Shown here piece by piece: positions 881 to 22,727 of a DNA stretch of 23,383 bases. The DNA is from Nostoc sp. DedSLP01. GTDB lineage: Bacteria > Cyanobacteriota > Cyanobacteriia > Cyanobacteriales > Nostocaceae. The position numbers were made by a program, and so were the translations under genes. Where the stretch lies: positions 1 through 23,383 of the forward strand of contig JAVRCJ020000069.1 in the NCBI GenBank assembly GCA_034530875.2. Reading direction: 5' to 3'. The number at the start of each line of letters is the position of its first letter. Position 1 is the first letter of the stretch. Under the pieces are notes generated by a model. It did not search any database and was not told where the DNA came from. It saw only the letters and a program-made list of their open reading frames with translations.

Positions 881-1369
881 TCCACATTCCGTGAAAAGCC
901 AGATAAATTATTACCTTTGATAGTTTTATTTTTGAGCAACTTATTTCTCAGGATATAAGTTATTTGGTATCTTTTATAGATAGTTTAATTATTAATACTA
1001 AAATAGTTTGGAGTTAAGAACAATTAAAATATTAATTTTTCAACTTTCTTTTTTAATCTTCATAAAATTTTTTACTTTACAAACAAAATTGAAAGCACTT
1101 AAACTTAGTCAATTTTTCTCAGTATATCAATAAAAAGTGAATGTTCTTCACAAAAATTATTTTTAGCGATCGATAATTCCTCTGGATAACAAGGAATTGC
1201 AACAACTAATTTTTGCGCTATAAAGCGCTTTAGCTAACTTGAATTGTATGTAGCCAATACAAACCAGGCAGCGCTGTTTTATGCCAAATTTTTTGAATTT
1301 ATGAATATTGCATATTGGGGTTTGAAAACTGTTAGACAAGAGTAGCATTTTCAACAGAGGTGGATGGTT

Positions 1370-4607: not shown

Positions 4608-4626
4608 ACTTTTGGTTAGATTGTCT

Positions 4627-5538: not shown

Positions 5539-5673
5539 ATATATTACTCCTAGTTTGAAACTAAAAAATAAAGAACAAAAAACAGAAATAGAGAATAGAG
5601 ACCAGGAGAGAATTACTTATATAGCAACCCGTGTAGGAGATCCAAACAAACCTATTGCCTATTGCCTCCAGCC

Positions 5674-6831
5674 TCACGCAAGCCAACTGTAAACATAATT
5701 TTTGTCTTCCAAAGCCATAGCATTCGTCGTCAGTCTCAATGGTCGAAAAGTATCAATCATCACAGCAAGTTCGTTAGTTCGTTCTTTGCCGATTGACCCT
5801 TCGTACATCCCTGGGTGCGGGCCATGAGGAATACCACTCGGATGTAAGGTGATCGAGCCTCGCTCAATTCCTTTGCGAGACATAAATTTGCCCTCAACGT
5901 AGTAGATAACCTCATCTGAATCGACATTAGAGTGATTGTATGGGGCTGGAATTGCCTGGGGATGATAGTCAAACATTCGCGGTACAAAGGAACACAAGAC
6001 AAAGCCAGGGCCATCAAAGGTTTGATGCACGGGTGGTGGCTGGTGTATTTTGCCTGTAATTGGCTCAAAGTCCTCAATATTGAATGCAAATGGCCAAAGA
6101 TGTCCATCCCAGCCAACTACATCCAGAGGATGATGTTTATACAAGTAACGACTAAACCCACCGCGAGCTTTGAGTAATACCTCAAACTCTCCTTCTTCAT
6201 CGTGAGTAATCAGTGCTGATGGCGGACGAATATCTCGCTCGCAATAAGGTGCGTGTTCGAGGAATTGACCGTACTGATTGAGATAGCGTTTGGGTGGCTC
6301 AATATGCCCGTATGCTTCGATCACAAGCATTCGCTGCTGTACTTCTTCATCTGGCAAAATGCGCCAAACAACCCCAGTCGGAATCACCAGATAATCCCCC
6401 GGTCTATAGTGGATGATTCCATACTGACTTTCTAGAACACCCCTGCCTTCGTGAATGAAAATTACTTCATCTCCATGTGCAAAACGATACCAATATTGCA
6501 TAGGTGCTGTAGGCACAGCTACGGAAATACAGACATCTGCATTGGCTATTAAAGGAATCCGAGATGCAATAGCATCGCCTTGAGCAGTTAGAGTTGCTGT
6601 ATGCAGATGACGGTGGCTCAGGGGAACCGATTCTTCATAAGATATATCTCTTTTGCTCTCCAGCAAAATTTTCTGGATTTGAGTGGGTGGATGCAGGTGG
6701 TAAAGCAGGGATTGAATACCCGAAAAACCACGAGTTCCCATCAGTTCTTCGTGATATAAAGAACCATCAGTTTGATGAAATTGAGTGTGGCGTTTATGAG
6801 GAATATTTCCTAATTTGTAGTAATAGGTCAT
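5674..6831 (-). CDS. hmgA: Homogentisate 1,2-dioxygenase
   Basis: HHPLDVVGWDG, IHQPPPVHQTF, FVPR, PYNHSNVDSDEV, IPHGPHP and ELAVMIDT motifs; adjacent to hppD. Confidence 0.95.
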   Translation of the reverse strand: MTYYYKLGNIPHKRHTQFHQTDGSLYHEELMGTRGFSGIQSLLYHLHPPTQIQKILLESKRDISYEESVPLSHRHLHTATLTAQGDAIASRIPLIANADVCISVAVPTAPMQYWYRFAHGDEVIFIHEGRGVLESQYGIIHYRPGDYLVIPTGVVWRILPDEEVQQRMLVIEAYGHIEPPKRYLNQYGQFLEHAPYCERDIRPPSALITHDEEGEFEVLLKARGGFSRYLYKHHPLDVVGWDGHLWPFAFNIEDFEPITGKIHQPPPVHQTFDGPGFVLCSFVPRMFDYHPQAIPAPYNHSNVDSDEVIYYVEGKFMSRKGIERGSITLHPSGIPHGPHPGMYEGSIGKERTNELAVMIDTFRPLRLTTNAMALEDKNYVYSWLA

Positions 6832-6886
6832 GGTTTTACCCCGCTTGTTTGGGTTTACCGTAGCTCCTTCTTTAAAACGGCATCAT

Positions 6887-7975
6887 CTAAAGATTTCCTC
6901 GCCGCGCTTGCTCGCGCTCAATTGCTTCAAACAAAGCTTTGAAATTTCCCTCTCCAAAGCCTTGGCAGCCATGTCGCTCAACTACCTCAAAGAACAGTGT
7001 TGGTCGATCTTCTACAGGCTGAGTGAAAATTTGTAACAAATAACCATCGCGATCGCAATCTACAAGGATTCCTAATTCTGCTAGTTTATCCAGTGGCTCT
7101 TCAATTTTCCCTACCCGTTCTTCTATGTTCTCGTAGTAGGTTGGAGGAATGTTGAGAAACTCAACCCCTGTTGCTCTAAGTCGGGAAACCGTCTCGATAA
7201 TGTTGCTGGTTGCAAGGGCGACGTGTTGAATTCCAAGACCCTGATTATATTCTAGATATTCTTCAATTTGAGACTTCCGTTTGCCTTGGGCTGGCTCATT
7301 GATCGGCAATTTGATTTTACCTGTACTGTCCTGCATCACTTTGGACATCAAGGCAGAGTATTCTGTGGAAATAGTTTCATCGTCAAAGTGTATTAATAGC
7401 TCAAAACCCATAGTATCAGCGAAGAACTTAGCCCACCGCTCCATACCACCCAGTTCGACATTACCAACTACATGGTCAATGTTAGTTAGACCTACTCCCT
7501 TTCCCTTAGCTGAGTCTCGAGGCTGAAAACTAGGTGCGAAAACTCCAGTGTAATTACTGCGCTCTACAAACTTGAGCAAAATATCGCCATAGATGTGAAT
7601 AGCAGCGTAGCGAATTATTCCATATTCGTCTTTTTCTTCAGTGGGTGGAATTGCTCCCACTGCACCCCGCGCGGTTGATTCCTGGTAGGCACTGGCGGCA
7701 TTAGGAACTTCCAGCGCAATAACAGCTATGCTATCGCCGTGCTGAAGTACACTTTTACAGATGGGATGATTTGGATTCAAGCCACTACTTAAAAGAAAGC
7801 GAATTTCGCCTTGCTCCATAACATAGGAAGCCGTTTTGCGATCGCCAGTTTCTAAACCCCGGTAAGCTGTATTGGTAAATCCGAAAGCTTGGGAGTAAAA
7901 CAGTGCTGCTTGCCTGGCGTTACCTACATAAAATTCAAGGTGGTCGAATCGTTGAATCGGAAAAAAATCATTCAC
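6887..7975 (-). CDS. hppD: 4-hydroxyphenylpyruvate dioxygenase
   Basis: DHVVGNV, SQIEEYL, GIQHVAL, GYLLQIFT, FFEVVER and GFGEGNFKALFEAIEREQARRGNL. GTG start with an AAGGAGG RBS. Confidence 0.97.
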   Translation of the reverse strand: MNDFFPIQRFDHLEFYVGNARQAALFYSQAFGFTNTAYRGLETGDRKTASYVMEQGEIRFLLSSGLNPNHPICKSVLQHGDSIAVIALEVPNAASAYQESTARGAVGAIPPTEEKDEYGIIRYAAIHIYGDILLKFVERSNYTGVFAPSFQPRDSAKGKGVGLTNIDHVVGNVELGGMERWAKFFADTMGFELLIHFDDETISTEYSALMSKVMQDSTGKIKLPINEPAQGKRKSQIEEYLEYNQGLGIQHVALATSNIIETVSRLRATGVEFLNIPPTYYENIEERVGKIEEPLDKLAELGILVDCDRDGYLLQIFTQPVEDRPTLFFEVVERHGCQGFGEGNFKALFEAIEREQARRGNL

Positions 7976-8059
7976 GGTAATTCCTCCTTTCGGGAACTAC
8001 AGTTATTAGTAGAAGGGAAGAAATAAAAGTAAAAGAGTAATATCAAGACAGTCTATTTA

Positions 8060-8079
8060 TGCAATACAAAAATATTGCA
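8060..8079. promoter_or_regulatory. Candidate operator palindrome in the divergent hppD / hypothetical-fahA promoter region
   Basis: TGCAATA-caaaaa-TATTGCA, perfect 7-bp arms. Confidence 0.4.
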
Positions 8080-8298
8080 GATACGTTCGTATTTTTGCGC
8101 CTATCCTGCGATTTCTGCTTTGCAGTGCTTGTCTAATGCGCTTTTACGTAAATTAATTTTTCTACCTATTTTAAGTATAGATATGTCAACAAGAAAATTT
8201 ACAAGTATGTAACTAAAAATTAACCAGAGCAATTAAAGTTCTAGATTTACATCGGTTAATTCTGAGTTAGCATGATTTTAGTCAGGAGATTATCTCCA

Positions 8299-9186
8299 AT
8301 GCTGGCATTGATAAAAACACTGTTCTCATCAATTGTTGACTATGCTGGACTGTTCCCCCCAGCAAAACTCACTATGGAAGAGGCGATCGCCAATTATGCT
8401 CGCTATCAAAATACTTACCACCACTGGATGTTAGGGAACTTTGTACTACCAGTGTCGCGGATAAATGAGTTTGAACAACTGCTTTTAAAGTTGCCTATAG
8501 AAGGGAGTAAAACTAAACACTGGCGGCTCAGTTTAATAATCTCTCAAGAAGTGGAGTCGGCGATCGCCAAAATTCAAGCTCTAAATGACAATCATAGAAT
8601 AGCGATCGCCTCCCTAGAATTTCCGCCGCTTTCCCTGAGAGAAATTGATAAAGTATTTCCCGATCTTCCTGCTGACATTGAGGCGTTTTTTGAAGTTCCT
8701 TATAATGAGGACTTGAAAGCATATTTAACTTTACTGCAACGCCCTGGTATATCGGCTAAAATTCGCACTGGCGGATTGAGTGCCGAGTCTTTTCCTACTA
8801 TTTCTCAGCTTTATGGGTTTATCTTTGCTTGTGCTGAAGCTCAAGTTGCTTTTAAAGCAACTGCTGGACTGCATCATCCCCTACCAGGGAGCTATCCCTT
8901 AACATACGAGCCAGATAGCTCTAATGCGATGATGCATGGCTTTGTGAATGTAGCAGTCTTAGCAGCACTGGTTTATTGGCAGAAGGTAACTGCACAAGAA
9001 GCCCTAGTAATTCTTAAAGAGTCCACTATCGAAAGTTTCCAAATTTCAGCAGATAGCATTGTTTGGAAAGACCGCCAACTGAACATCTGGGAGCTACAAA
9101 AGGCTCGGCAAAGTTTCTTTCGTTGTTTTGGCTCTTGCTCATTTCAAGAACCCATAGAATCACTCCAGAATCTGAAACTGTTATGA
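8299..9186 (+). CDS. Conserved hypothetical protein translationally coupled to fahA
   Basis: Enzyme-like motifs VDYAGLFPPA, AKIRTGG, FKATAGLHHP, MHGFVN and FGSCSFQEP. AGGAG at 8284-8288 favours ATG 8299 over 8272. Its stop overlaps the fahA start (ATGA). Confidence 0.8.
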   Translation: MLALIKTLFSSIVDYAGLFPPAKLTMEEAIANYARYQNTYHHWMLGNFVLPVSRINEFEQLLLKLPIEGSKTKHWRLSLIISQEVESAIAKIQALNDNHRIAIASLEFPPLSLREIDKVFPDLPADIEAFFEVPYNEDLKAYLTLLQRPGISAKIRTGGLSAESFPTISQLYGFIFACAEAQVAFKATAGLHHPLPGSYPLTYEPDSSNAMMHGFVNVAVLAALVYWQKVTAQEALVILKESTIESFQISADSIVWKDRQLNIWELQKARQSFFRCFGSCSFQEPIESLQNLKLL

Positions 9187-10502
9187 GCCGTTCAATCGAT
9201 CGAACTCACGATCCAAATTTGCGTAGTTGGGTGGAATCTGCCAATCAAAAGGATACTGATTTTCCCATTCAGAACTTACCTTTTGGCGTGTTTCGCCATC
9301 GTAATGGTATCCGAAGCTCGCGAATTGGGGTAGCGATCGGCAACCAAATTCTAGATTTGACATCATGTTACCAGTCAAGACTGCTCCAAGAACTTCCCGA
9401 ACAATTGCAAGCAGCTTGTACGGCTGCTAACTTAAATCCCTTGATGGCTTTAGGAAGTTGGGCTTCATCGGCATTGCGTACTCGCCTGAGCGAATTGCTG
9501 CGCTGGAATGAACAAAAGCCTTCGTCGGAGGCAAAACTGTTAGTGCCGATGGTAGAAGCTGAACTTTTATTACCTGCGAACATTGGCGATTATACTGACT
9601 TTTACGCTTCTATTTTTCACGCCACCAACGTTGGAAAGCTATTCCGTCCTGACAATCCCTTACTCCCTAACTACAAATACGTTCCTATTGCCTACCACGG
9701 ACGAGCCTCTTCCATTGTACCCAGTGGTACATCTATCAAGCGCCCCCAAGGTCAGCGAAAAGCTCCTGAAGATACTGTGCCTCATTTCGGTTCTTCTGTG
9801 TCTCTAGACTATGAAGTGGAGGTCGGCTTTCTGATTGGTGCTGGCAATCAACTAGGACACCCCATATCTATTGCCAACGCAGAGTCACACGTGTTTGGAC
9901 TTTGCTTAGTCAATGACTGGTCAGCACGGGATATCCAAGCTTGGGAGTACCAGCCCTTGGGTCCCTTCCTCAGCAAGAGCTTTGCCACGACGATTTCTCC
10001 TTGGGTGGTAACTTTGGAAGCTCTGGCACCTTTCCGTTGCCCTGCTTTTGAACGTTCCCAGGAAGATCCGTCGCCCCTACCTTATCTGTCTGGCTCAATT
10101 AATACCAGAGTGGGTGGAATAGATCTGATACTTGAAGTGCTACTTAATTCGGCACAGATGCGCGAGCAAGGGATAGAGCCATTTTCTATGAGCCATGCTT
10201 CTTTTAAACAAATGTACTGGACAATAGCTCAGATGATTGCTCACCACACTAGTAATGGTTGCAATCTCCGCCCTGGAGATTTACTAGCTAGTGGAACAGT
10301 TTCTGGTACTGAATTAGGTTCTCAAGGATCTCTGCTAGAAATCACTCGGCGTGGTTCTCAGCCTATTAAACTAGCAACAGGTGAGATCCGAACTTTCCTG
10401 GCTGATGCAGACGAAGTTATTATTCGCGGATACTGTGAGAAAGAAAACTATGCCAGAGTCGGGTTCGGAGAGTGTCAAGGCATAGTTTTTGCTGCCGAAT
10501 GA
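9183..10502 (+). CDS. fahA: Fumarylacetoacetase
   Basis: DFPIQNLPFGVF, GDYTDFYAS.FHATNVG, YHGRASS, LDYEVEVG and NDWSARDIQAWEYQPLGPFLSKSF. Start ATG 9183 lies in an ATGA overlap. Confidence 0.95.
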   Translation: MSRSIDRTHDPNLRSWVESANQKDTDFPIQNLPFGVFRHRNGIRSSRIGVAIGNQILDLTSCYQSRLLQELPEQLQAACTAANLNPLMALGSWASSALRTRLSELLRWNEQKPSSEAKLLVPMVEAELLLPANIGDYTDFYASIFHATNVGKLFRPDNPLLPNYKYVPIAYHGRASSIVPSGTSIKRPQGQRKAPEDTVPHFGSSVSLDYEVEVGFLIGAGNQLGHPISIANAESHVFGLCLVNDWSARDIQAWEYQPLGPFLSKSFATTISPWVVTLEALAPFRCPAFERSQEDPSPLPYLSGSINTRVGGIDLILEVLLNSAQMREQGIEPFSMSHASFKQMYWTIAQMIAHHTSNGCNLRPGDLLASGTVSGTELGSQGSLLEITRRGSQPIKLATGEIRTFLADADEVIIRGYCEKENYARVGFGECQGIVFAAE

Positions 10503-10661: not shown

Positions 10662-11837
10662 TTAAAACTTGAGTATTTCCCAGTCATAGTTGTCGGGAAA
10701 AGGTTGTATTTCCCAGACTATGCTTTCTCCTGCTTCTAAGGCAACTTCTACGTACAATTGTTCTACAGCCGTTGTAGCTACATCTTCGTTATTGGGAAAA
10801 GGCTGTAAATCTTCGGTGAGTAATCGCAGTTTAAAACCACCAGGAATAGCTGCACCGACGGCGGCGTTACGTAATTCAAAACGCCAAATAGTTGCATCTT
10901 GATTATTTTGTGGTGCGATCGTCATCTCATAGATTTGGCCTGCGATCGCCAACCGACGAGAGAGAATAGTACTTGGTTGTGTGTCTTCCACACCCCGCGC
11001 CTCAGCAGCACTCAGTTGTAAATCAAAGCTTCTCCAACCGACAGCCTCAGCAACTTGAGAAATACCGCTTTGCAACCATTGGATAATTGACCATTGTTCT
11101 GGTAATCCTAAGCGTTGTTGATATAAATTTTGTCGCCAACCGCCATGTTGAATTAATCCACCCCACAGTTGAAAAGGGATTTCTTGCCGGGGTGTAAGTA
11201 TTTCCGGGTTTCCCAGACGGGCTATTAAATTTTGTGCTTGTTGTGGCGATAAATTGGGAATCTCTTGAATAGTGCTACGGGTGGGTTCTTCCGGACACAA
11301 TTGACGCGCCAGAGCTAAAACGCTGATGTCGTTGATTATATCAGTAGCATCCAGGGAATAAGTGCGATCGCTGGCATCATAACTACCTTGAGTTTTCAGT
11401 TTTTCATGGTTGCAATAACCCCAAATCCTGACGTAGCCTTCATCTGGCTCGACTTGCACAGCTAAATAATAATCACCTACCCAACTAGGAATATCCACCC
11501 ATTCTTGAGGTACTCGGAATTCACTCAAATCAATTGCTTCACTAGGTATCAAGACTAATCTGGTTGCCTCAAGGGTGAGTGCAATTCCATTAACCAGTTC
11601 CCAAAAACTGGGTAAAGCAGTAGTACTTGGCCAAACCTTTGTTTGTGGCGTCCAGTCTTCTTGCAACCATAGCAAGATAGCACCCAGGCAAAGTTGATTA
11701 ATATAAGCTTGATAGCGAGAATTAGCATTAGAAAAAGCTTGACTGTCCAAATCCGCTTGGTTTTGCAGAATTATAGGGATTTCTAAAACCAGATCTGTTG
11801 AGCTAGCGAAAGTAAATACAGTGGTGTCAATAGTCAT
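10662..11837 (-). CDS. DUF1822-like protein (candidate sigma-factor partner / anti-sigma)
   Basis: AYINQLCL, LPSFWELVNG, FRVPQEWVDIPSWVGDYYLAVQV, RIWGY and a C-terminal GFKLRLLTEDLQPF domain, typical of the cyanobacterial genes that follow these sigma-like factors. Start set at MTIDTT because the upstream extension runs through STRR-like DNA. Confidence 0.75.
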   Translation of the reverse strand: MTIDTTVFTFASSTDLVLEIPIILQNQADLDSQAFSNANSRYQAYINQLCLGAILLWLQEDWTPQTKVWPSTTALPSFWELVNGIALTLEATRLVLIPSEAIDLSEFRVPQEWVDIPSWVGDYYLAVQVEPDEGYVRIWGYCNHEKLKTQGSYDASDRTYSLDATDIINDISVLALARQLCPEEPTRSTIQEIPNLSPQQAQNLIARLGNPEILTPRQEIPFQLWGGLIQHGGWRQNLYQQRLGLPEQWSIIQWLQSGISQVAEAVGWRSFDLQLSAAEARGVEDTQPSTILSRRLAIAGQIYEMTIAPQNNQDATIWRFELRNAAVGAAIPGGFKLRLLTEDLQPFPNNEDVATTAVEQLYVEVALEAGESIVWEIQPFPDNYDWEILKF

Positions 11838-11999
11838 GGCGATTACTCTTGGGGATTGGGCATTGGAAATTTGCAAGTTTGAGATTCTGAGGTAGATGGA
11901 TAGAGAACTTAAGGAGATGAACGAAGCTTTGAAGTGGACGAACAAACTCCCACTTGTCCCTACCTCTGGCTACCTCCCCTGCCCCGTTCCAATTCCCAG

Positions 12000-13166
12000 T
12001 CATACAGCATAGTAATTTTTCAACCATTCCTCCATTAATGTGTTTATACTATGCAGTAGGTCTGAGGTAAGAGAAATATGCAAACTATCTTTACTCCAGT
12101 TAGCTAAAAAGCGTAACAAAGTTTCTTGGGCTTTTTTTAGTCGCCGCGAGACAGTATACTGCTGTATTTGTAATTGTTTGGCAATTTTGTCTTGAGTTAG
12201 TTCTTTAGCATAATAAAGTTGTAATATTTCTTGTACTTGCGGTTCGAGTTCAGCGATCGCAGCTACTAAAACTTTGTTAATTTCAGTTTGTTGAAACTTT
12301 CTTGTTTGTTCTTCTTCTTGAGCAAGAATTTGATTAATTAGAGATTCTTGCTGTGTTTCAGGAATATTATCAAGCCATTCCCACGAATCATCACCACCTT
12401 TAGGGATATTAAGAGAGTCAACCCTAAAATAACGATAGCGGCGTGCAGCTTTAGCCGCATTTAAAAGCCACTTTTCTAGGGTTTGGTAATTTACTTGCTG
12501 ACCGCTTTGGCAATTATAAGCTTTAGCGATCGCCTCCCAAGTCTCATTGTCTGGTTGGGAAATTTGACGAGAAGTACCTTTTTGAGTTGGGATATATAAA
12601 GTTTTGAAACAGTTCCAAGCTAGGACATAAGCATTAATATCCTCTGGTAATAAGGCTGCATTTTGTAAAGACTCTACCAAAAACTTTTTAGTGATTTTTC
12701 GTAATAGTCCCCAATCTGTACAAATATCAATTTCACGATTTTGGCGTAAATTTTCCCGAATAGCACTGCTAAAGATGGCACTGGCGTAGTTTTTTAAAAT
12801 AAAGCCTCGATCTGGATTAAATCCTTTGAGGACTTTATCAACTTGAGCGATGGCAATTTGAAAACAGTCTGATAATTTGTACTGAGTACTCGCAAAACTG
12901 TTAACTGTTTTTTGGGATGCCCAATAACAGGATTCTTGCAAGTAAGCCGCAAGATGCTGTTTAGCTAGTAGCGTTGTTTCAGGAACGAGCCAAAATTTAT
13001 ACCAATATAAAATCCAAAAATTTTCCGAAGTTTCTTGAGGAGTGCGGTTGAGACAACTTTGGATACTGCGACGTAACCTTGATTCCGTCGCCCAACCACT
13101 GAAGCGATCGGCGTCAAATTGCACAAAAGTTGAAAAGATTTCAATGATGCTTTGCCGAGGATGCAT
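12000..13166 (-). CDS. Atypical cyanobacterial sigma-70-family (HetZ-related) RNA polymerase sigma factor
   Basis: Region-2-like HLAAYLQESCYW and KGFNPDRGFILKNYAS; region-4 HTH ILQLYYAKELTQDKIAKQLQIQQYTVSRRL. Confidence 0.8.
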   Translation of the reverse strand: MHPRQSIIEIFSTFVQFDADRFSGWATESRLRRSIQSCLNRTPQETSENFWILYWYKFWLVPETTLLAKQHLAAYLQESCYWASQKTVNSFASTQYKLSDCFQIAIAQVDKVLKGFNPDRGFILKNYASAIFSSAIRENLRQNREIDICTDWGLLRKITKKFLVESLQNAALLPEDINAYVLAWNCFKTLYIPTQKGTSRQISQPDNETWEAIAKAYNCQSGQQVNYQTLEKWLLNAAKAARRYRYFRVDSLNIPKGGDDSWEWLDNIPETQQESLINQILAQEEEQTRKFQQTEINKVLVAAIAELEPQVQEILQLYYAKELTQDKIAKQLQIQQYTVSRRLKKAQETLLRFLANWSKDSLHISLTSDLLHSINTLMEEWLKNYYAV

Positions 13167-13202
13167 AAAAAATTGGAACCCAACCTATAGGAAGAGTGAA
13201 AG
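13162..13202 (+). promoter_or_regulatory. Conserved promoter-like motif, copy 1 (faces the 144-aa secreted protein gene; overlaps the sigma start codon)
   Basis: TGCATAAAAA-attggaaccc-AACCTAT-aggaag-AGTGAAAG. Confidence 0.7.
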
Positions 13203-13350
13203 CGTTAAAGGACGCCTACACAAACTTTACTACAAGGTGTGAGGATTATATTTCGACTTAAATGAAATATTTTATACTTAGCCAACTGGTAATCATGTCT
13301 ACTTATCAATAAGTTACAAAAACAATTACGAATAATGGAGTGTGACTAAA

Positions 13351-13785
13351 ATGTTGAAACGTTCTATGAGTATTATTGCTGCTAGTAGCATCTTAACTAC
13401 TGCTTTAATCAATCCTGCTTTAGCTGTACCTGCTGACTTTATTGGTACTTGGGTAAATAAAGATGCCAATACTTCTAATATTACTCGTTTAGTAATTACC
13501 TCAGGTGGTAGCAATAAATTAAATATTCAGGTGTTTGGCAAATGTCATCCTAGTGATTGTAATTGGGGAACTGCACCATTACTTACCTATGGTATTAATG
13601 TCCAAGATACTAATCATAAATATGCAACAGCCAACTATAATAAAGGGTTTGCAAATTCCTTCCTCACCTTGGGATCTGCTGGTCAAGAATTACTGTTGCA
13701 AGGCTATACGCAGTTTTTAGATAATAGCGGCAGGCAGAATTACTATTCTCGTGAATACTTTCAAAAGCAAACAAGAGTGAGATAA
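13351..13785 (+). CDS. Secreted hypothetical protein (144 aa, beta-rich, CHPSDCNWG motif)
   Basis: Sec-type signal MLKRSMSIIAASSILTTALINPALA|VP, GTWVN motif and a C-x4-C pair. GGAG at 13337-13340 favours ATG 13351 over GTG 13342. Confidence 0.8.
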   Translation: MLKRSMSIIAASSILTTALINPALAVPADFIGTWVNKDANTSNITRLVITSGGSNKLNIQVFGKCHPSDCNWGTAPLLTYGINVQDTNHKYATANYNKGFANSFLTLGSAGQELLLQGYTQFLDNSGRQNYYSREYFQKQTRVR

Positions 13786-13927: not shown

Positions 13928-14121
13928 GTGAAACTGGAAAACTCTAATCGGAGCTTTTAAACAGTTGTCGCACTATCATATTTTACTTAATCAAGTAATC
14001 TTGTTTTCATCTGTCACGAATGAGTTACAGGAGAAAAAAGATGAAACATAAGTAGCCGTAAACATGTGATAAATCGAGTCACAGCAATAAAAGTAATAAA
14101 TCAACTTAAAGGAGAATCGCA

Positions 14122-14553
14122 ATGAAGATTACAACTTCAACTTCTACACGTTTAGCATTAGTAATGGGTTTAGCGATCGCTAATTCAATTATCAGTACTG
14201 TAGCTAAAGCTGAATCTATCCCTAATTTAGTAGTTTCTGATAGCTATAGCGTATCAAATAAGCCTTTTATTACTAATTCTGCCCGTCGTGACACTCTTCA
14301 TAATTTGAATCAACGACCGTTGAATAGTGTTTTAGAAACCGACGGTGGTAAAACAAAAGAATCGAGTGATAAAGGCAAAGATTCTAGCGATAAAGGTAAG
14401 GATAGTAAAGAGACTTGCGAAAGCGGTAACTGTGGTGGTGGTTTTCTAGATAGAGCTAATCCAGTTATTTTACCAGCAGATCAACTGAAAGTTCCTGTAC
14501 TACAAAATGTACGTCCTCAAAGTTTAATTAAAGCTAACAAGCCAATCTTCTAG
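14122..14553 (+). CDS. Secreted low-complexity protein; putative RiPP (graspetide-like) precursor / ATP-grasp substrate
   Basis: AAAGGAG RBS; signal peptide ending VAKA|ES; central GGKTKESSDKGKDSSDKGKDSKETCESGNCGGG; lies directly upstream of two ATP-grasp-type genes. Confidence 0.7.
   Translation: MKITTSTSTRLALVMGLAIANSIISTVAKAESIPNLVVSDSYSVSNKPFITNSARRDTLHNLNQRPLNSVLETDGGKTKESSDKGKDSSDKGKDSKETCESGNCGGGFLDRANPVILPADQLKVPVLQNVRPQSLIKANKPIF
14362..14403 (+). repeat. Two 21-nt coding tandem repeats (SSDKGKD x2)
   Basis: tcg agt gat aaa ggc aaa gat / tct agc gat aaa ggt aag gat: four differences, all synonymous. Confidence 0.9.
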
Positions 14554-14559
14554 AAAAAC

Positions 14560-14592
14560 AGATTCCCGACTTCTTCAAGAAGTCGGAAATCT
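14560..14592. repeat. Palindromic hairpin between the precursor and enzyme genes
   Basis: AGATTCCCGACTTCTT-c-AAGAAGTCGGAAATCT (16-nt arms, one mismatch); resembles a common Nostocales dispersed palindrome. Confidence 0.75.
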
Positions 14593-14627
14593 AAGCCTCC
14601 CATGAGAAAAATTATGGACTAAATACT

Positions 14628-15413
14628 ATGGATTTATTAATTATTGGTTCGAGTGATGACATTTTTTGCCAAGCAGTTAACGAATTGGTTAGACAAAAAG
14701 GTTATGCGAGTGCAATTTTAGATGTTTGCAATGCTGCAAGAATGTTTTCTATCAGTGTTACTTCTGGAAAATCATATATTACACCAGAAATCCCAGTTAT
14801 TTTACGTATTCCGCCACAGACGCCGATTCGCGCTAGTTTTGATGATTCTTTTATTTATGATGAGTGTCTTGCTACTTTATGGGCAGCGATGACATTATCT
14901 AAATCACCAGTAATTAATCGTCCAACTGCAAATAGTCTTTGGGGTAATTTATCGTATTCTTCTAACTTGACTAAATTAAAGGCTGGTTATACTAGCAATC
15001 TAGAAGTATTCTCTTCACAAGTTCCACCATCGCCGCAAGCATTACTCGATAAACAATGGTATCTTCAAGATTTAACTACTTATAATACTGCTGCATATCC
15101 AGAAATTCCTCAAGGGGTGGGGCCATTTCGCGCAAGTTGGGTTTCGCCTAACCTGGAATATGAAATTGTTGTTGTTTTAGAAGATAAAGCATGGCGTTGC
15201 ACCAATACATCTCTAGAACATTTGCAGTTAGAAGAAAAAAGTATTTCGCTATTGAGAAATTTAGATTTGGTATTTGGTACTGTAACTTGGAGTATTGATA
15301 GCAACCTAGAAAGTGCCAATATTGCTCGTATCAACCCTTATCCATCGCTGGAAGAAATACAGTTTGTTTGGTCGGATTTTGCTCCCGCACTTTTGGAGAA
15401 TATTTTCTCATGA
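14628..15413 (+). CDS. Degenerate ATP-grasp-like protein
   Basis: Collinear with its neighbour: PVINRP (cf. NVINRP), LDLVFGTVTW (cf. LGLKFAGWDF) and ARINPYP (cf. LEVNPMP). It lacks the metal-binding D/E residues and is ATGA-coupled to the next gene. Confidence 0.6.
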   Translation: MDLLIIGSSDDIFCQAVNELVRQKGYASAILDVCNAARMFSISVTSGKSYITPEIPVILRIPPQTPIRASFDDSFIYDECLATLWAAMTLSKSPVINRPTANSLWGNLSYSSNLTKLKAGYTSNLEVFSSQVPPSPQALLDKQWYLQDLTTYNTAAYPEIPQGVGPFRASWVSPNLEYEIVVVLEDKAWRCTNTSLEHLQLEEKSISLLRNLDLVFGTVTWSIDSNLESANIARINPYPSLEEIQFVWSDFAPALLENIFS

Positions 15414-17044
15414 TTTATGCAATTGGCCTTGATTCAGACCGCACTTTTTGTCATTTTGTTAACTACGCTGAATCTCGTGGTGTCGAAGTACAAGTAATTA
15501 ATTTACGCGAAGTAATTCAAAATGGAGATTGGCGGCTAGCGTTACCCGATGATAATGAAAGTTGGATAAGTTTTTCTAGCGAAAAGTACATATTAAATCC
15601 TCATGGTTCTTATTATTGTCGCTTGATTGACCTTTCAACCGTACAATCAGATTTACAAGATGCGATGCGATGGAAAAGTCTTCTTGCTGCACTTTGCTGT
15701 TGGCTAGAACATATTCCCGGTAACGTAATTAATCGTCCTGGTGCTGGTGGTAATAATTTCTCAAAACCGCTTCATGAATTTCATCTGCAATCTTTAGGTT
15801 TTCAAGTTGCTGATAGCATTACCAGTTCCAATCCAGAAATTCTAGCTGAGTTTGCTAACGCTGGATTAACAATTGTTAAGACAACATCAGGCGTTCGTGC
15901 CGATAGTAGACTGGTAAAATCAGAGGAGTTTCTCGATTTCCACCCAGACGCTGGCCCAGTTCATTTACAAAGATATATACACGGTGCTGATGTGCGCGCC
16001 CATGTAGTGGGTAATAGAGTTCACGCAGAATTGATAAAATGTCCGCAGGTAGACTATCGCCATTTTCATGAAGAAGCTGAGTATATCGAGTGGGAGTTAC
16101 CAGAAGCTTTACACCAAAAAATTATTAGTGCAACTGCCGCATTGGGGTTAAAGTTTGCAGGTTGGGATTTTAAAGTTACCAACGATTTAGAGTACTGGTG
16201 TTTAGAAGTTAATCCAATGCCGGGATACGATGGATATGATATTCGGGCAGATGGTAAAATAACAGATTCGCTGTTAGCTTTGCTGACAGAAGATATTACA
16301 GAAAATAGTATTAGTTGGTATGCAGATTCGAGGAATGAAATTTTCTCAGAACAAATTGTGACAGTCGAACAGTGTAATGATATTTGTTCTGTAATTCATA
16401 GTTTAAGAGAATTATGGATAAAACGAGGAAACTCTCCAAAGTTTTTCTATACTTTAGGTACAGCTAGTTATTTAGATTTCTTAAATCAACCTAATTTTTC
16501 TAGAGATTATTATACTATAGCTCGTGAATATAATCTAATTCTAGAAGAACACTTAGGTTGGCTTTATAAGTTAGTTAAAGAATATTTAGAGCAGACGCTT
16601 ATAAACCCTGTAATGTATAAACCAGGTGCAGCACTGCCCGGTTTTCATATTTGGCAAAATGCTAATCTTATTACTAAACCCAATGCTACTACACACTTCG
16701 ATTTGCAGTACCGAAACATCAAATGGGATGAAGATAAACTCGATACTGTAAACACAATATCCTTTACTTTACCAATTAAACTACCTAAAAGTGGTGGTGG
16801 TTTGAATGTTTGGGATTTCAACTATATCAATGATTATAGCCAAGCGATCGCAGGTGATGTAGACATTCTTAAACGATTTAGAACTAAAACTTTTCATCGC
16901 TATAAAGTTGGTGAAATTGTTTTACACAGCGGACATACACTTCATCAGATTGCACCAACTACTTACATTTATCCTGACGATGAAAGAATAACTCTACAAG
17001 GTCATGGGTTATTTTGTGATGGTCAATGGTTACTGTACTGGTAA
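15410..17044 (+). CDS. RimK-like ATP-grasp ligase fused to a C-terminal 2OG-Fe(II) oxygenase domain
   Basis: ATP-grasp motifs: NNFSKP, IVKTTSGVRA, HLQRYIHGADVRAHVVG, DYR, FAGWDF, CLEVNPMPGY. Oxygenase motifs (from ~16335): HFD (HxD), SGGGL, HTLHQIAP, DERITLQGH. Start ATG 15410 lies in an ATGA overlap. Confidence 0.85.
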   Translation: MIYAIGLDSDRTFCHFVNYAESRGVEVQVINLREVIQNGDWRLALPDDNESWISFSSEKYILNPHGSYYCRLIDLSTVQSDLQDAMRWKSLLAALCCWLEHIPGNVINRPGAGGNNFSKPLHEFHLQSLGFQVADSITSSNPEILAEFANAGLTIVKTTSGVRADSRLVKSEEFLDFHPDAGPVHLQRYIHGADVRAHVVGNRVHAELIKCPQVDYRHFHEEAEYIEWELPEALHQKIISATAALGLKFAGWDFKVTNDLEYWCLEVNPMPGYDGYDIRADGKITDSLLALLTEDITENSISWYADSRNEIFSEQIVTVEQCNDICSVIHSLRELWIKRGNSPKFFYTLGTASYLDFLNQPNFSRDYYTIAREYNLILEEHLGWLYKLVKEYLEQTLINPVMYKPGAALPGFHIWQNANLITKPNATTHFDLQYRNIKWDEDKLDTVNTISFTLPIKLPKSGGGLNVWDFNYINDYSQAIAGDVDILKRFRTKTFHRYKVGEIVLHSGHTLHQIAPTTYIYPDDERITLQGHGLFCDGQWLLYW

Positions 17045-17498: not shown

Positions 17499-20400
17499 AT
17501 GTCACCAATTGGAATCCCCAGTCGCTCAACTTCAGTCAAACAAACTGCAATTCCTAAGCTGTGGCTCATGTTGGTGGGAGTCAATAAATATCAAGATGAC
17601 GGACTACCCAGCCTTAATTATTCAACAGTAGATTGTCAGGGTTTAGCAGAAGCATTGGTAGATGCAGCCGCACAATTTACCGAAACAGAGGTGAAAATAT
17701 ATCATGATTTTGCACCGCAACCACCATCTTTAGAAAACATCCGTGCCAGTCTCCGACAAATTACCACTGCGGCTCAACCTATTGATACTATTTTATTTTA
17801 TTTTTCCGGACATGGGATTGTAGAACCAAACACGCAGCAAGCATTTTTGTGTTTGGCAGATACTCAAAAATCCGATCTTCAAAACACAGCTTTAGCTTTA
17901 CAAGAACTTTTACAATTATTGGGTAATAGTGGGGCGCAAAATCAGCTTGTTTGGCTAGATGCTTGTCATAGCGGCGGGATGACACTCAGAGGTATAACAA
18001 AAGAACCATTGCTGAACGCTACAACAAAAATGGTTGAAGTTTTACAACAATGCGCTGCTAAAAGTAAAGGTTTTTATGCTTTGCTTTCCTGCGATAATAA
18101 CCAGCAATCTTGGGAGTTTCCCGAATTGGGACATGGGGTGTTTACTTATTATTTAATGAAAGGGTTGCAAGGTGAGGCAGCAGATAACCAAGGCTTAATT
18201 TATGTGGATAATTTATATCGATATGTATATCATAAAACTCTCCAATATATAGATAAAAGCAATCAACAGTTACGGCTGATTAATCAGCAGAAAAAAAATA
18301 AAGGAGAAACTCAAATTTTTCGAGAATATCCGTTACAAACTCCCAAGCGAATTGTTGAGGGAGTCGGAGAACTAATTGTAGGCAGAGGATTAACTACGGT
18401 AACTCTTGGGGTGCGTCGGATAGGAATAGTAGTAGAGGGATTATCAGTTAGCAAAACAACACTAGATATTAGCAAATTTCTCGGAAATACTGGGGATTTT
18501 ACACTAGAGTATTTGCCAGCAACAAAAGTATCTGCCGATCGCCTCAAAGAAGCGATCGCTAGTGATTTACAACAACCAGCATCAGAAGTTATTCTACTTT
18601 ATCTGCGGGGACGAATTGAAGAAACTGAAACAGGCGAATGGTTATTGCTGGGAGAAAATATTCGTATCAAGCGTTCCTGGTTGAAACAACAGCTACGCCA
18701 ATGCAGCGCTCAACAAATTATCATCCTCGATTGTCCTGTAGCTAATACATGTTTGCAAGATTGGGTAGAAGATTTGCAACTTGACTCCCACCAAGGACAA
18801 TGTATCATAGCCTACGCCTCGCCTGCTGATGCACCAGAACGCTTCGCCGAAAAATTTCTCGATACTTTGATGGCAGCTTCCCAAGCAGATGGACTCTCAG
18901 CCGCCGCAGCGATCGCTCAACTACAACTATCCTTGGCAGGTAGCGGTGTTCCTCTTTACATCTGGCTATCAGGCAGACAAGGCATTATAGAAATTCTCCA
19001 AGCAAAAACGGGAGCAAACACGCCAAAATCAACCACAGGATTGGATTTGGGAGTATGCCCTTATATGGGGCTAAGTGCTTTTTCCGAACAAGATAGCCAG
19101 TATTTTTACGGTAGAGAAGCCTTAACTCAGGAGTTAATTCACCAACTACGCGATCGCTCTTTTTTAGCCGTCATCGGTGCTTCCGGAAGCGGCAAATCTT
19201 CAATTGTCCAAGCTGGTGTAATTCCCCAACTGCGATTGGGCAAACAAATACCCAGTAGCGAACAATGGTGGATTAGAAGCATTCGTCCCGGAGCAAATCC
19301 GCTTGAAGCTTTAGCGCAGCAGCTTGGGGGAGCAGGGGAGCAGGGGAGCAGAGGGGCAGAGGAAGCAGGGGGAGTAAAAGAGCAAAAGAATTATTCTTAT
19401 CCAATCCCCAGTCCCCAGTCCCCAGTCCCCAGTCCCCAATCCCCCCATCTTTTGTTAGAGGGAATATTTCACCAAGGGGTAGAGGGATTTGTTTACTGGA
19501 TACGCAATCAACCCCATCGAGTTGTGGTGCTAGTGATAGATCAGTTTGAGGAACTGTTTACTTTAGCTCCAAGCCCAGATAGAGAGCTATTTTTAGAATT
19601 ATTGCTGGGAGCAGTGCAATATGCTGGCGATCGCTTCAAATTAATTATTACTTTACGGGCAGACTTTATTGCCTCCTGTTTAGAAGTACCAGCACTGGCT
19701 AAAGCTTTGCAGGATTTGAGCATATTAGTTCCACCGAAGCTAAGTTTGGATGATTATCGACGGGTGATTCTCAACCCAGCTCAACAAGTCGGGTTAAAAG
19801 TAGAACCAGAACTAGTGGAAGTATTATTGCGAGAGCTAAATCGCTCACCAGGAGATTTACCATTACTAGAATTTGTTTTAGAGCAATTATGGCAACATCG
19901 AGTTGCTGGTGAGTTGACTTTACAAACCTATCAAGAGCAACTAGGCGGAATTCAAGGAGCATTAGAGCGATCGTCTCAGGCTGTTTACGAAAGTTTCGAT
20001 CCTCAAATGCAAGAATGCGCTAAATGGATTTTTTTATCTTTGACACAACTAGGTGAAGGTACAGAAGATACTCGCAGGCGGGTACATAAATCAGAGTTAA
20101 TAGTCAAAAAATATCCAGCCGCATTAGTAGAAAAAACCCTCAACGCCTTAACTGCTGCCAAGTTAGTAGTGATGAATTTAGAACAAGAAGAACTAACAAA
20201 AGGACAAGGTAGACAAGGAGAACAAGAAAAAATTTCTCCCCCTGCTTCCCCTGCCTCCCCCGCCCCCATAACAGTAGAAGTTGCCCATGAAATCCTCATC
20301 CGTCATTGGTCAACTTTACGCTGGTGGTTAGAAGAAAATCGCGATCGCTTGCGAAAACAAAGGCAAATTGAGCAAGCTTCACAATTGTGGCTACAACGCA

Positions 20401-22727
20401 GTCAGCAAGCTGATTTCTTATTACAAGGAGTGCGACTAGCTGAAGCAGAAGATATCTATATTAAATATACCGACGAACTTTCTGCTGATGTGCAACGGTT
20501 TATTGAAGCTTGTTTAGTACAAAGAAAACAACAGCAACTACAAGAAAAAAGAAGACTCAAGCAAGCTCAAAGGGCTGTAGTTGCACTCAGTATTTTAGGA
20601 TTAGCGGCTGTCTGTTTCGGCTCCTTAGCCTATTGGAAATCTCAAGCAGCCCAATTGCGAGAAATTGAAGCCTTAAATGCCTCATCTCAAGCTAATCTTT
20701 TGTCACATCAGCAGTTAGAAGCGCTGATTGCCAGTGTCAAAGCAGGTAAACAGCTAAAAAACACTCTTGTAGCACCAACCGATTTGCAAACTCAGACTTT
20801 GGGTGTTTTACAACAAGTAATTTCTGGAACCCAAGAGCGCAACCGCTTAGAAGGGCATAGCGCTGAAGTATCGAGCGTGAGTTTTAGTCCTGACGGTAAA
20901 ACAATTGTATCGGCTAGTAACGACAAAACAGCCATAATTTGGGGACATGATGGCACCAAGTTACGGACATTAACAGGGCATACTGGTACAGTCCGGAGCG
21001 TCAGTTTCAGCCCGGATGGTCAAACGATCGCAACAGCTAGTTTCGATCGCACCGTCAAGCTTTGGAGAACTAAGGACGGTTCTTTAATTAGAACCCTAAA
21101 CGGTCATACTGCGGAGGTTCTGAGCTTATCTTGGTCTACGAACGGCGAGACCATCGCCACAGGTAGCGCCGATGGCACTGCTAAAATTTGGAAAGTTAGC
21201 GATGGTCATTTGCTGAGAACTTTTAGCGGATATCGGGATTTTGTTAATTGTGTCAGTTTTAGCCCTGATGGGGAAATTTTGGCGATCGCTAGTGCAGATA
21301 AAACCGTTAAACTTTGGAGTGTTAGCGATGGAGCGTTGCGGCAAACCCTCCAAGGACATAGCGCCGGAGTCTCCAGCGTTGCTTTTAGCCCCGACGGCCA
21401 AACTCTAGCTTCAGCCAGTGAAGATAAAACAGTGAGACTATGGCACAGAGACGGCAGCTTACTGAGAATTATTCCAGCCCACAACGCAGAGATCCTCAGC
21501 GTCAACTTCAGTCATGATGGTCAAACCCTAGCTTCTACCAGCGCCGATAGCACAATCAAAATTTGGAGTTCTCAGGACGGCTCTTTACGTCAAACTTTAC
21601 TAGGGCATAGTATTGCAGTATACAGCGCCAGTTTTAGCCCCGATGACCAGACTTTAGTTTCGGCTGGCGCTGATAAAACTGTTAGACTTTGGCAGCTAGA
21701 TAATCCTCTATTCAAAACTCTCACAGGACATCAAGGTAAACTCTATAGTGTGAGTTTTAGCCCGAATGGGCAAATAGCCACTGCCGGTCAAGACACTACG
21801 ATAAAACTTTGGCAGCGTGACGGAACTTTGCGCCAAACCCTGGAAGGTTATGATACTTCAGTTTACGGACACAGTAAGGAAATCTACGGTTTAGCCTTCA
21901 GTCCTGACGGCGAGACATTAGCCTCAGCGAGTCTTGACCATTATATTAAACTTTGGCGGACTCGTGACGGCTATATGATTAAAACCCTTCAAGGGCATCA
22001 GCGCGAAGTCAATAGTCTCAGCTTTAGCCCTAATAGTCAAATTCTGGCAAGCGCCAGTGCTGATACGACCATTAAACTTTGGAATATTCAAACAAAAGCT
22101 TTAATTAAAACTCTCCAAGGGCATACGGCTGAAGTTTTGAGCGTCAGTTTCAGTCCTAGCGGTCAAGTACTGGCCTCAGCTGGTAGAGATAACAAAGTTT
22201 TGCTTTGGAGAGTTAAGGATGGTAAGTTACTGTATAGTCTGCCAGGACATACTAACGCTGTCAACGCCATTAGTTTTAGTCCTGATGGTAAAATACTCGC
22301 CTCGGCTAGTGCTGATAAAACGATTAAACTTTGGCAAGTCAGCAATGGAGCTTTACTACAAACTCTTACGGGACATACTGATAGCATCTACAGCCTCAGC
22401 TTTAGTCCTGACGGCCAAACAATCGCCTCAGCTAGCGGTGATGGAAGCATCAAACTTTGGAACCGTGAAGGCAGAGAACTCAAAACTCTTCTAGGACATA
22501 CTGATGCAGTATTGAGCGTCAGTTTTAGCCCTGATGGGAAATTTTTGGCTTCTGCCAGTTTTGATGGTACAGCTAAACTTTGGCGTCTTCTGAGCGCGGA
22601 ACTGCAAACCCAAGATTTAGACAATCTACTGATTCGCAGTTGTAATTTACTAAAAGATTACCTCAAAACTAACCCCAAGATTAGCGATCGAGAACGGGGT
22701 TCGCTATGTTCAGATTTACGGAGCTAG
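17499..22727 (+). CDS. Caspase-family (peptidase C14) - degenerate caspase-like - STAND NTPase (nSTAND1-like) - TM helix - 14x WD40 protein
   Basis: Catalytic dyad motifs YFSGHG and [32 protein letters not shown]; Walker A GASGSGKS; Walker [36 protein letters not shown]; hydrophobic [23 protein letters not shown]40 array. Confidence 0.92.
19326..19446 (+). repeat. In-frame STRR block inside the NTPase domain
   Basis: GGGGAGCA-type repeats, then five CCCCA(G/A)T heptamers (19406-19440; STRR1); translated [15 protein letters not shown]...[15 protein letters not shown]. Confidence 0.9.
20202..20267 (+). repeat. Second in-frame STRR-like block
   Basis: GACAAGG-type and CCTGC(T/C)TCC-type 9-mers; translated GQGRQGEQ...[11 protein letters not shown]. 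Confidence 0.75.
20853..22583 (+). repeat. 14 WD40 repeats (likely two 7-bladed propellers)
   Basis: Counted 14 units of the form [21 protein letters not shown]. Confidence 0.9.

Follow-up and report, generated by a model that had tools for sequence, protein, structure and literature searches.

A Nostoc gene cassette of predicted graspetide group 35 with a putatively inactive ATP-grasp partner, an ATP-grasp/oxygenase fusion and a Lys-Asp/Glu repeat precursor

What is made by a three-gene cassette of Nostoc sp. DedSLP01 in which a lysine- and acid-rich repeat protein (gene A) precedes an ATP-grasp-like protein (gene B) and an ATP-grasp/oxygenase fusion (gene C)? The cassette lies on the plus strand of contig C69 (JAVRCJ020000069.1), in a stretch of 23,383 nucleotides (nt) that was analyzed whole and is called the window here. 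A sequence-only reading had described it as a graspetide-like system of a new class, and inspection of the open reading frames (ORFs) confirmed its three genes and their position. We addressed the question by computation, from gene linkage, predicted folds, the presence and loss of motifs, and a published listing of group 35 graspetides. The answer that we find fairly probable is a group-35 graspetide cassette in which a B/C heterodimer makes Lys-Asp/Glu lactams, most of them with the i,i+4 spacing of corallotide, the product is hydroxylated by the oxygenase, and, in this organism, the Sec pathway exports it.

Group 35 is a predicted graspetide group in Carter et al. 2026 (PMC13097080), where its loci are said to hold only synthetases and precursors, the latter often long and repetitive; the systems characterized in the available text are those of groups 21 and 15. 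At least 34 rows of supplement 2 of that paper belong to group 35, mostly from Nostoc, with Frankia, Streptomyces and Streptomonospora, and one of the precursors is identical to A. Since close homologues of A also stand in group-35 rows, the cassette is group 35 by precursor sequence. A Brunnivagina synthetase is 83% identical to C, and that Brunnivagina species has a group-35 row. Many of these rows list two synthetase accessions, presumably B and C. As published, in the available text, the group comes with no mention of an oxygenase, a dead partner or a signal peptide, and the rows seen include none for the alphaproteobacterial and acidobacterial members described below. The claim of a new class therefore falls: the same precursor and its relatives were already filed as predicted group 35, and Lys-Asp lactam formation with 2-oxoglutarate/Fe(II) (2OG/Fe) hydroxylation has been published for corallotide.

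An ATP-grasp domain alignment, scanned against one genome per species, yielded 141 relatives, and the locus counts given here rest on the best 80 of them. A K/D/E-repeat precursor ORF lies just upstream in 74/80 loci, so the sequence-only reading withstands its own refuting condition, that homologous ATP-grasp pairs generally lack such a neighbor, and a B-like partner gene is present in 78/80. An HxD 2OG/Fe oxygenase is found in 71/80, fused to the ATP-grasp in 25, all cyanobacterial. Six loci are without a called precursor: L046, L080 and L083 reach contig edges, L061 has the repeat frame with no start called, L041 is a partial archaeal match, and L019 has a transposase-like ORF (L019:3758-4942) in the precursor's place, with no precursor in 5.2 kb upstream. 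The L041 match, a partial family ATP-grasp from a metagenome-assembled genome of Nitrososphaeraceae, clusters with cyanobacterial rows, and its locus has no partner gene. By the rows of the family tree, the cassette ranges over Cyanobacteriota, Actinomycetota, Pseudomonadota, Acidobacteriota, Planctomycetota and one archaeon, at least six phyla. In other cyanobacteria the same three genes stand amid unrelated neighbors, which indicates that the cassette moves as one block. Neither a peptidase nor a transporter family is a recurrent neighbor in the 80 loci, which extends to the family what had been remarked of this locus; with no peptidase linked, the product probably acts as a stapled small protein and is not cut out as a peptide.

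The core of A reads GG-KTKES-SDKGKDS-SDKGKDS-KETCESGNC-GGG and is followed by a tail of 36 amino acids (aa), exactly as first described. Residues 77 to 104 hold seven Lys, seven Asp/Glu, Cys99 and Cys104. K79, K86, K93 and K96 each have an acid at +1 and at +4, and K77, K84 and K91 have one at +3; the seven Lys and seven acids could form consecutive pairs, at i+3 and i+4. K[DE]xx[DE] units number four, against a shuffle mean of 0.31, and 0/20,000 shuffles reach four, the pattern having been picked after inspection of the data and the shuffles ignoring tandem duplication. A is the sole ORF with four such units in 25 aa among the 10,735 Met-started ORFs of at least 60 aa in the genome.

The same register was compared across the family, separately for precursors with and without a signal-like stretch (defined below). 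In 49 unique non-signal cores, which repeat with periods of 3 (KDS), 5 (KEVGE) or 6 (KEGKDF), or of 4 (KDGD, the exception to the +4 acid), the residue after Lys is acidic in 94% and the residue at +4 in 78% (37% in shuffles); positions -2 and -5 are likewise enriched in acids. The nine unique signal-type cores are mostly heptads; of their 32 K[DE], 31 are followed by an acid at +4, whereas only 1 has one at +3 and 2 at +5; these nine are related and so do not amount to nine independent tests. K-[D/E]-x-x-[D/E] is shared across repeats of 3, 5, 6 and 7 residues, and the longest cores, of about 150 aa, contain as many as 45 K[DE] units. Ser and Thr are dispensable, with none in the 129 aa of the L088 core, and the Ser positions of the heptads vary to Ala and Cys (ASDKGKD, ACDKCKE).

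Outside the core, the precursors share both ends. The motif P-F-(I/L/V)-x4-R-x-(D/E)-x-L-x-x-L occurs in 69/75 precursors; the search pattern fixed positions 1-3, 8 and 10 and left the two Leu free, and position 15 is L in 52/58 unique motifs. The microviridin leader PFFARFL is indeed missing from A, as had been said, but this related leader motif at aa 48-62 had been overlooked. At the C-terminus, (L)L...P-(I/V)-(I/F/V/M), the last two residues are hydrophobic in 52/55 unique termini and P stands at -3 in 39/55. Microviridin identity was rejected: A has neither the PFFARFL leader nor the TxKYPSD core, which a genome-wide scan finds only on contigs C32 and C34, and C misses the MvdC and MvdD equivalog cut-offs (27.4 vs 425 and 23.1 vs 475 bits). 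The same genome has two microviridin-type loci, C32:75600-78100 and C34:26700-29300, with PFFARFL leaders, KYPSD or KFPSD cores and paired ATP-grasps. In supplement 2 of PMC13097080, some precursors of groups 32 and 39 combine K-[DE]-x repeats with a FIxxxxRP(D/E/A) motif like the group-35 leader, C-terminal in group 32, and precursors of group 34 have S/T-E-x triplets and are likely the ester counterpart.

The N-terminus of A has a K/R n-region and a hydropathy of 2.18 over 12 aa, and A28 and A30 are invariant in 18/18 homologues (A included). Judged by hand from these features, A probably carries a Sec signal and is probably exported in the cyanobacterial branch, in agreement with the export first proposed. 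With a hydropathy cut of 1.8, set after inspecting the data, a signal-like stretch is found in 26 precursors, all cyanobacterial and all with at least two Cys, and in 0/45 others, none of which has two Cys; four were not scorable. In the family tree, from which 16 near-duplicates of 81 rows were left out and in which L019 is labelled signal-type although no precursor was found there, the fusion, the signal peptide and the Cys pair trace to about one cyanobacterial clade (two changes, or possibly one). In Leptothoe (L036) both the signal and the fusion are missing. Four traits noted in the sequence-only reading, the heptad period, the signal peptide, the Gly-Gly and the fusion, belong to cyanobacteria and not to the family at large. 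Gly-Gly as a family-wide PCAT cleavage site was rejected, being missing in several homologues, with no recurring PCAT. Pfam gave only a spurious TadZ_N match for A, and the ESM Atlas nothing at 0.9 or more; a PatX match at 0.77 was not taken as a lead. The CESGNCGG stretch presumably resembles the EGKCG motif of bufferins, a likeness that we set aside for want of an MNIO: neither an MNIO nor a DUF2063 partner appears in the Pfam scan of the window or among recurring neighbors.

Which chemistry would act on this core? Among solved structures, the C family profile finds PsnB first (E 2e-33, 119 bits), then PruB and MdnC, with RimK at 5.6e-12. R213 and DFR233-235 of PsnB align with R196 and D215-Y-R217 of C (PsnB chain offset 20), and PsnB R72, K172, R213 and DFR map to C-family residues kept in 48-50/50 homologues. 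R71, K119, K157, R196, D253, E266 and N268 are present in 50/50 and DYR in 48-49/50. By these residues, the ATP-grasp domain of C is intact at its ATP, Mg and acceptor sites and related to graspetide synthetases. An R[ST]N...GG loop, which binds the free amino acid in RimK-type ligases, is seen in RimK and in LysX/GshB-like rows and in 0/50 synthetases. Pfam has no ATP-grasp match for B or C at E 0.1, and C scores 29.6 bits against a cut-off of 143.4 for the RimK-family model TIGR00768. In a 25-row tree (leaving out L093, L096, L099, L112, L113, L115 and two family rows), the C family is a 99/100 clade on the graspetide side of a 100/98 branch, apart from LysX/ArgX- and GshB-like ligases. The graspetide-like logic first proposed is borne out to this extent, PsnB being the closest relative of C and donor/acceptor-rich precursors being linked; the tree puts C on the graspetide side and leaves its nesting within the graspetide synthetases in an open polytomy.

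Gene B has no Pfam or NCBIfam match and aligns over its full length to the C profile (hhalign P 97.6, E 4.7e-12). Its AF2 model (predicted local distance difference test [pLDDT] 96) has an ATP-grasp fold with PsnB as the top match (TMq 0.67); the ESM Atlas gave unnamed clusters and one cluster with RimK on 33% of members. The catalytic motifs are almost entirely lost: ExN is present in 4/124 B homologues against 49/50 for C, D[FYW]R in 8/124 against 49/50, and GxD[VIL]R in 0/124 against 45/50. Lacking ATP, Mg and acceptor motifs, B appears to be a catalytically dead ATP-grasp, as had been supposed. It keeps D11, R60 (which aligns to R71 of C), F75, E79 (124/124), N97-R-P, E126, R168, W221 and P239. 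The predicted complex of B and C scores 0.88, while the best of three controls stays at 0.00; runs share at least 96% of contacts, and partner pLDDT is at least 88. The mark for this score is reached by 116/157 solved complexes and 2/215 mismatched pairs. F75, E79 and E126, the residues of B that are conserved best, fall within the predicted interface, and F75 and E79 lie on the helix that, by approximate mapping, bears the trans-acting Arg101 in PsnB. PsnB, the group 2 plesiocin synthetase, is a dimer whose asymmetry lies in the core being loaded into one subunit only, and it has a helix that acts in trans (10.1101/2021.03.09.434688; PDB 7DRM), so a dead second subunit would be a natural end point.

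The fused C-terminal domain was modeled at pLDDT 91. Its best match is WelO5 (Foldseek TMq 0.72; VIA Z 21.4, root mean square deviation 2.9, 228 aligned residues), the next reaching Z 15.4. The HxD iron site is present in 73/73 domains, and H129, D131, H212 and R226 (domain numbering), which include the distal His and the 2OG-binding Arg, are invariant in 52/52. With a DSBH fold, an HxD...H triad and the Arg, this domain is a 2OG/Fe(II) oxygenase, and the ATP-grasp/oxygenase fusion seen at the outset is one of a PsnB-like and a WelO5-fold domain. Halogenases of the WelO5 type have HxG/A in place of HxD at the iron site. The Asp here aligns with D166 of the WelO5 G166D structure; with HxD in 73/73 domains the halogenase reading was rejected, and the site points to a hydroxylase. 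No member (0/52) matches PF13640 at E 0.05 and 19 match the WelO5 family weakly, CorC itself lying outside this comparison.

By its testable features the cassette reads as a graspetide system, and by analogy it would use a PsnB-like enzyme in the manner of corallotide. B would pair with the ATP-grasp domain of C in a heterodimer that copies the asymmetric PsnB homodimer, and catalysis would fall to C alone. The heterodimer would bind A through the PF(I/L)xxxxRxDxLxxL leader, the conserved C-terminal motif or both. C would then phosphorylate Asp/Glu side chains and join them to Lys epsilon-amines, giving repeated omega-lactams, mainly from Lys(i) to Asp/Glu(i+4): K79-D83, K86-D90, K93-E97 and K96-E100. 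With i+3 pairing of the remaining three Lys, as many as seven rings could form. An i,i+4 Lys-Asp/Glu lactam is a classic helix-stabilizing staple. As an optional tailoring step, the fused HxD 2OG/Fe domain would hydroxylate the stapled units, at Lys C5 as in corallotide or at Asp C-beta. In the cyanobacterial branch, the product would leave by Sec, the signal peptide would be removed, and a Cys99-Cys104 disulfide would form.

Other chemistries could act on such a core. C might work as a RimK/LysX-style ligase, the alternative already raised from the sequence, activating core Asp/Glu (or a free amino acid) and adding free amino acids to side chains, with Lys serving in recognition or being acylated by an external acid. 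The substrate is highly charged and of low complexity, the family sits on a long tree stem, and C gives weak matches to MptN (E 8.5e-9) and to RimK family models (E 4e-7), but the nearest structure and hidden Markov model are graspetide synthetases, the fixed Lys-acid spacing suits intramolecular pairing, and the absence of the R[ST]N...GG loop weakens the case further; we regard ligation as unlikely. The same chemistry might also link Lys of one A chain to Asp/Glu of a second, or A to some other protein, and so build a polymer or coat. Such intermolecular isopeptide cross-linking would account for the missing peptidase and transporter and for the very long cores, and it fits the conservation of both termini and the aggregation reported for corallotide cores (PMC13097080). 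Against it, the characterized graspetide synthetases in the sources available cyclize within a single chain, and the Sec signal of the cyanobacterial branch could not serve a polymer already cross-linked in the cytoplasm; we consider this reading quite improbable.

The donor and the register can be questioned too. In the cyanobacterial branch, the conserved Ser pair of SSDKGKD could donate to Asp and give a mixed or mainly ester graspetide; S82 is invariant and S81 and S89 nearly so in 18 close homologues, and the group 34 triplets (PMC13097080) show a comparable S/T-E arrangement. Against this, the two Ser positions vary to Ala or Cys and, across the family, most cores have few or no Ser/Thr in register, and we give esters only a very slim chance. 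Lactams might instead join adjacent K-[D/E] or run backwards to an acid at -2 or -5, or the oxygenase might modify the linear peptide before the rings form or independently of them, in the way that SmaO hydroxylates Asp at the beta position. The near-universal acid at +1 of non-signal cores, KDGD repeats included, and the enrichment at -2 and -5 would suit another register, and SmaO is a precedent for an oxygenase-first order; yet heptad cores fix the acid at +4 after K[DE], and i,i+4 and i,i+3 lactams have precedent among described graspetides. We hold this reading to be improbable.

Several observations count against lactam formation by a group-35 heterodimer as set out above. On the side of the enzyme, C falls far below every NCBIfam graspetide cut-off (best TIGR04187, 60 vs 350), its family has a stem of 2.08, and 46% of bootstrap trees group the graspetide-like rows without it, an open polytomy in a tree that lacks true bacterial RimK; DFR-like motifs are present in RimK too. 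The B-C score may stem from the likeness to solved ATP-grasp homodimers. On the side of the substrate, only K-[D/E] adjacency is near-universal among cores: the period-4 KDGD repeats are without the +4 acid (present in 820/1035 overall and in 0/4 in L071), and at period 3 the +4 register is automatic. The oxygenase was not found in 4/4 cassette genomes that miss it locally and were searched whole, one of them 100% complete, and therefore ranks as an optional step. Signal, Cys pair and fusion come from about one clade, so their co-occurrence is not independent evidence, and the passage of several lactams through SecY is a question for the predicted Sec export.

The features of the cassette are collected in Table 1. 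Gene C runs from 15410 to 17044 (544 aa) from an ATG overlapping the B stop (ATGA); a 558-aa TTG start at 15368, given by the ORF tool, was rejected for its disagreement with the homologues' consensus start MIYAIG. Twenty palindromes similar to the A-B stem-loop occur genome-wide, and other cyanobacterial loci have unrelated hairpins at the same place; it may raise precursor mRNA relative to enzyme mRNA. A promoter scan showed no excess over shuffles (11 vs 13.4). In one lichen metatranscriptome, short contigs are 90-99% identical to segments of the three cassette genes and of the gene upstream of them; they do not show strand or level and were not used as evidence.

Table 1. Features of the cassette, in positions of the window.
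Feature	Position	Strand	Basis
Shine-Dalgarno-like AAGGAG, 7 nt ahead of the precursor ATG	14109..14114	+	Sequence
Gene A, precursor, 143 aa, graspetide group 35	14122..14553	+	18 homologues including A; identical group-35 row in PMC13097080 supplement 2
Predicted Sec signal peptide (aa 1-30), cut after AKA	14122..14211	+	Judged by hand
Conserved leader-like recognition motif PFITNSARRDTLHNL, aa 48-62	14263..14307	+	Motif in 69/75 precursors
Core, aa 77-104	14350..14433	+	Sequence and register statistics
Conserved C-terminal motif (L/I)L...P-I-F, very end of A, follower-like	14521..14550	+	Comparison of termini
Stem-loop between A and B, dispersed palindrome type	14559..14593	.	Sequence
Gene B, putative pseudo-ATP-grasp partner, 261 aa	14628..15413	+	Profile alignment, predicted fold, motif loss
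Gene C, N-terminal PsnB-like ATP-grasp ligase domain	15410..16291	+	Profile, structure and residue mapping
Gene C, C-terminal WelO5-fold 2OG/Fe(II) oxygenase domain	16310..17044	+	H429-x-D431...H512 and R526, hydroxylase-type triad

Around the cassette, window positions 1364-10502 hold a tyrosine-catabolism region with acyl-CoA synthetase, thiolase, haem-oxygenase-like, homogentisate dioxygenase, HPPD-like and fumarylacetoacetase genes. Positions 10662-13785 and 17499-22727 hold a DUF1822/ECF-like sigma factor pair, an unknown protein of 147 aa that is probably secreted, and an nSTAND1/WD40 protein whose N-terminus looks caspase-like by eye; these genes flank the cassette only in close Nostoc relatives. 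Elsewhere in the family, a pentapeptide-repeat-like gene (~120-135 aa) lies just upstream of the precursor in 13 loci (L036, L044, L047, L049, L050, L053, L054, L069, L071, L073, L075, L076 and L079). A luciferase-like monooxygenase gene lies directly upstream in 13 actinobacterial loci (L035, L037, L039, L040, L042, L043, L045, L048, L051, L052, L063, L070 and L074), which make up most of the 18 loci in which a further family, PhyH-like by eye, recurs. Loci L073, L075, L076 and L079 (about 6800-9700) have two tandem HxD oxygenase paralogues and, further downstream, a third 2OG-Fe(II) oxygenase (PF03171).

The B profile has strong matches (E below 1e-40) in 22/301 genomes of the host's taxonomic family, host included, and weak half-length matches in seven more; at 50% clustering it collects 182 proteins, whose weak tail may contain a sister family. 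A sister cassette is present in other Nostocaceae (L119:3753-6399, L120:3595-6338 and L121:3506-6047), in the order conserved ~290-aa unknown protein, ~235-aa divergent ATP-grasp partner and intact ATP-grasp, the last matching the C profile at E about 1e-54. No repeat precursor was seen adjacent to it, and it is possibly Makarova branch 8 or Carter group 32.

A bolder picture, which we offer tentatively and think rather doubtful, is that group 35 performs whole-protein stapling. An obligate enzyme/pseudo-enzyme heterodimer would grip both ends of a 120-300-aa protein and install overlapping i,i+4 lactams between Lys and Asp/Glu, as many as about 45 units. The invariant Glu79 of B would steer lysine in trans, and a new WelO5-fold hydroxylase would decorate a product that is never cut out. 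In one cyanobacterial clade a Sec signal and a disulfide would have been acquired, so that the graspetide is exported by Sec, perhaps as a mini-protein that binds metal or sits at the surface, and the FIxxxxR(P/x)D handle would unite groups 32, 35 and 39 as one unstudied superfamily. If the lactam model favored further above is right, it supplies an enzyme pair for dense Lys-Asp/Glu i,i+4 lactams with few sequence demands, of use to those who engineer peptides. Partner-dependent graspetide synthesis would gain a case in which an enzyme pairs with a pseudo-enzyme, the oxygenases would form a new family of peptide hydroxylases whose nearest kin are the WelO5 halogenases, and a graspetide exported by Sec would be at hand; what has been published on group 35 would be corrected and its range widened.

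Among the papers searched, no characterized group-35 product was found; the supporting information of PMC13097080 may bear on what is new. Nothing on graspetides with a signal peptide matched this system by title or start of the abstract, and a text search gave no occurrence of "inactive/inactivated ATP-grasp" in the papers listed. The Klebsiella CfmP system was judged not relevant. Among the systems compared, bufferins (PMC11626156), in the text available, are a precedent for Sec export of a RiPP and for what is predicted here: a precursor with a Sec signal, Cys/disulfide, an enzyme with a partner protein and a small-protein product, but they use MNIO/thiooxazole chemistry. Branch 8 of Makarova et al. 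2022 (PMC8939145) likewise sets an ATP-grasp beside a catalytically inactive one; in the part available, that branch has linked peptidases and no predicted precursors, and DKGKD/KDFKD/KEGKD and two group-35 accessions are absent from the paper's 11 supplements. Myxomiditides (PMC12848669), as described in the available text, resemble the predicted system in tandem Lys-Glu lactams (KxxE)n, cooperating ATP-grasp proteins and a follower peptide, whereas their core is of the microviridin type with a PFFxRFx leader and MyxD2 is catalytic when partnered, not dead.

PsnB is the best sequence match for C and the best fold match for B, but, in the source cited above, it is a homodimer acting on TxxxxEE ester cores with no oxygenase. 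The group 15 system of corallotide, CorABCD (PMC13097080), is described in the available text as forming a KxxxD lactam whose Lys is then hydroxylated at C5 by a 2OG/Fe enzyme, which activates the synthetase as well. It resembles the present cassette in its large precursor, repeated KxxxD (here K[DE]xx[DE], with the ring predicted from sequence), 2OG/Fe oxygenase and, by the model above, partner-activated synthetase. In corallotide, however, the activator is the oxygenase CorC (PF13640), a beta-lactamase-like CorD is present, the five repeats are spaced, and the system is confined to Corallococcus; here the oxygenase has a WelO5-like fold, the partner is a putative pseudo-ATP-grasp, the repeats are dense, and the cassette spans at least six phyla, with no recurring CorD-type beta-lactamase-like family and no Corallococcus among the 80 loci. 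The graspetide class and the chemistry of lactam formation and hydroxylation are already published. New relative to the literature available to us are the putatively dead partner and the heterodimer predicted for it, the family of oxygenases linked to the cassette, the proposed recognition of the precursor at both ends, the K[DE]xx[DE] rule and, in cyanobacteria, the predicted signal together with the Cys pair.

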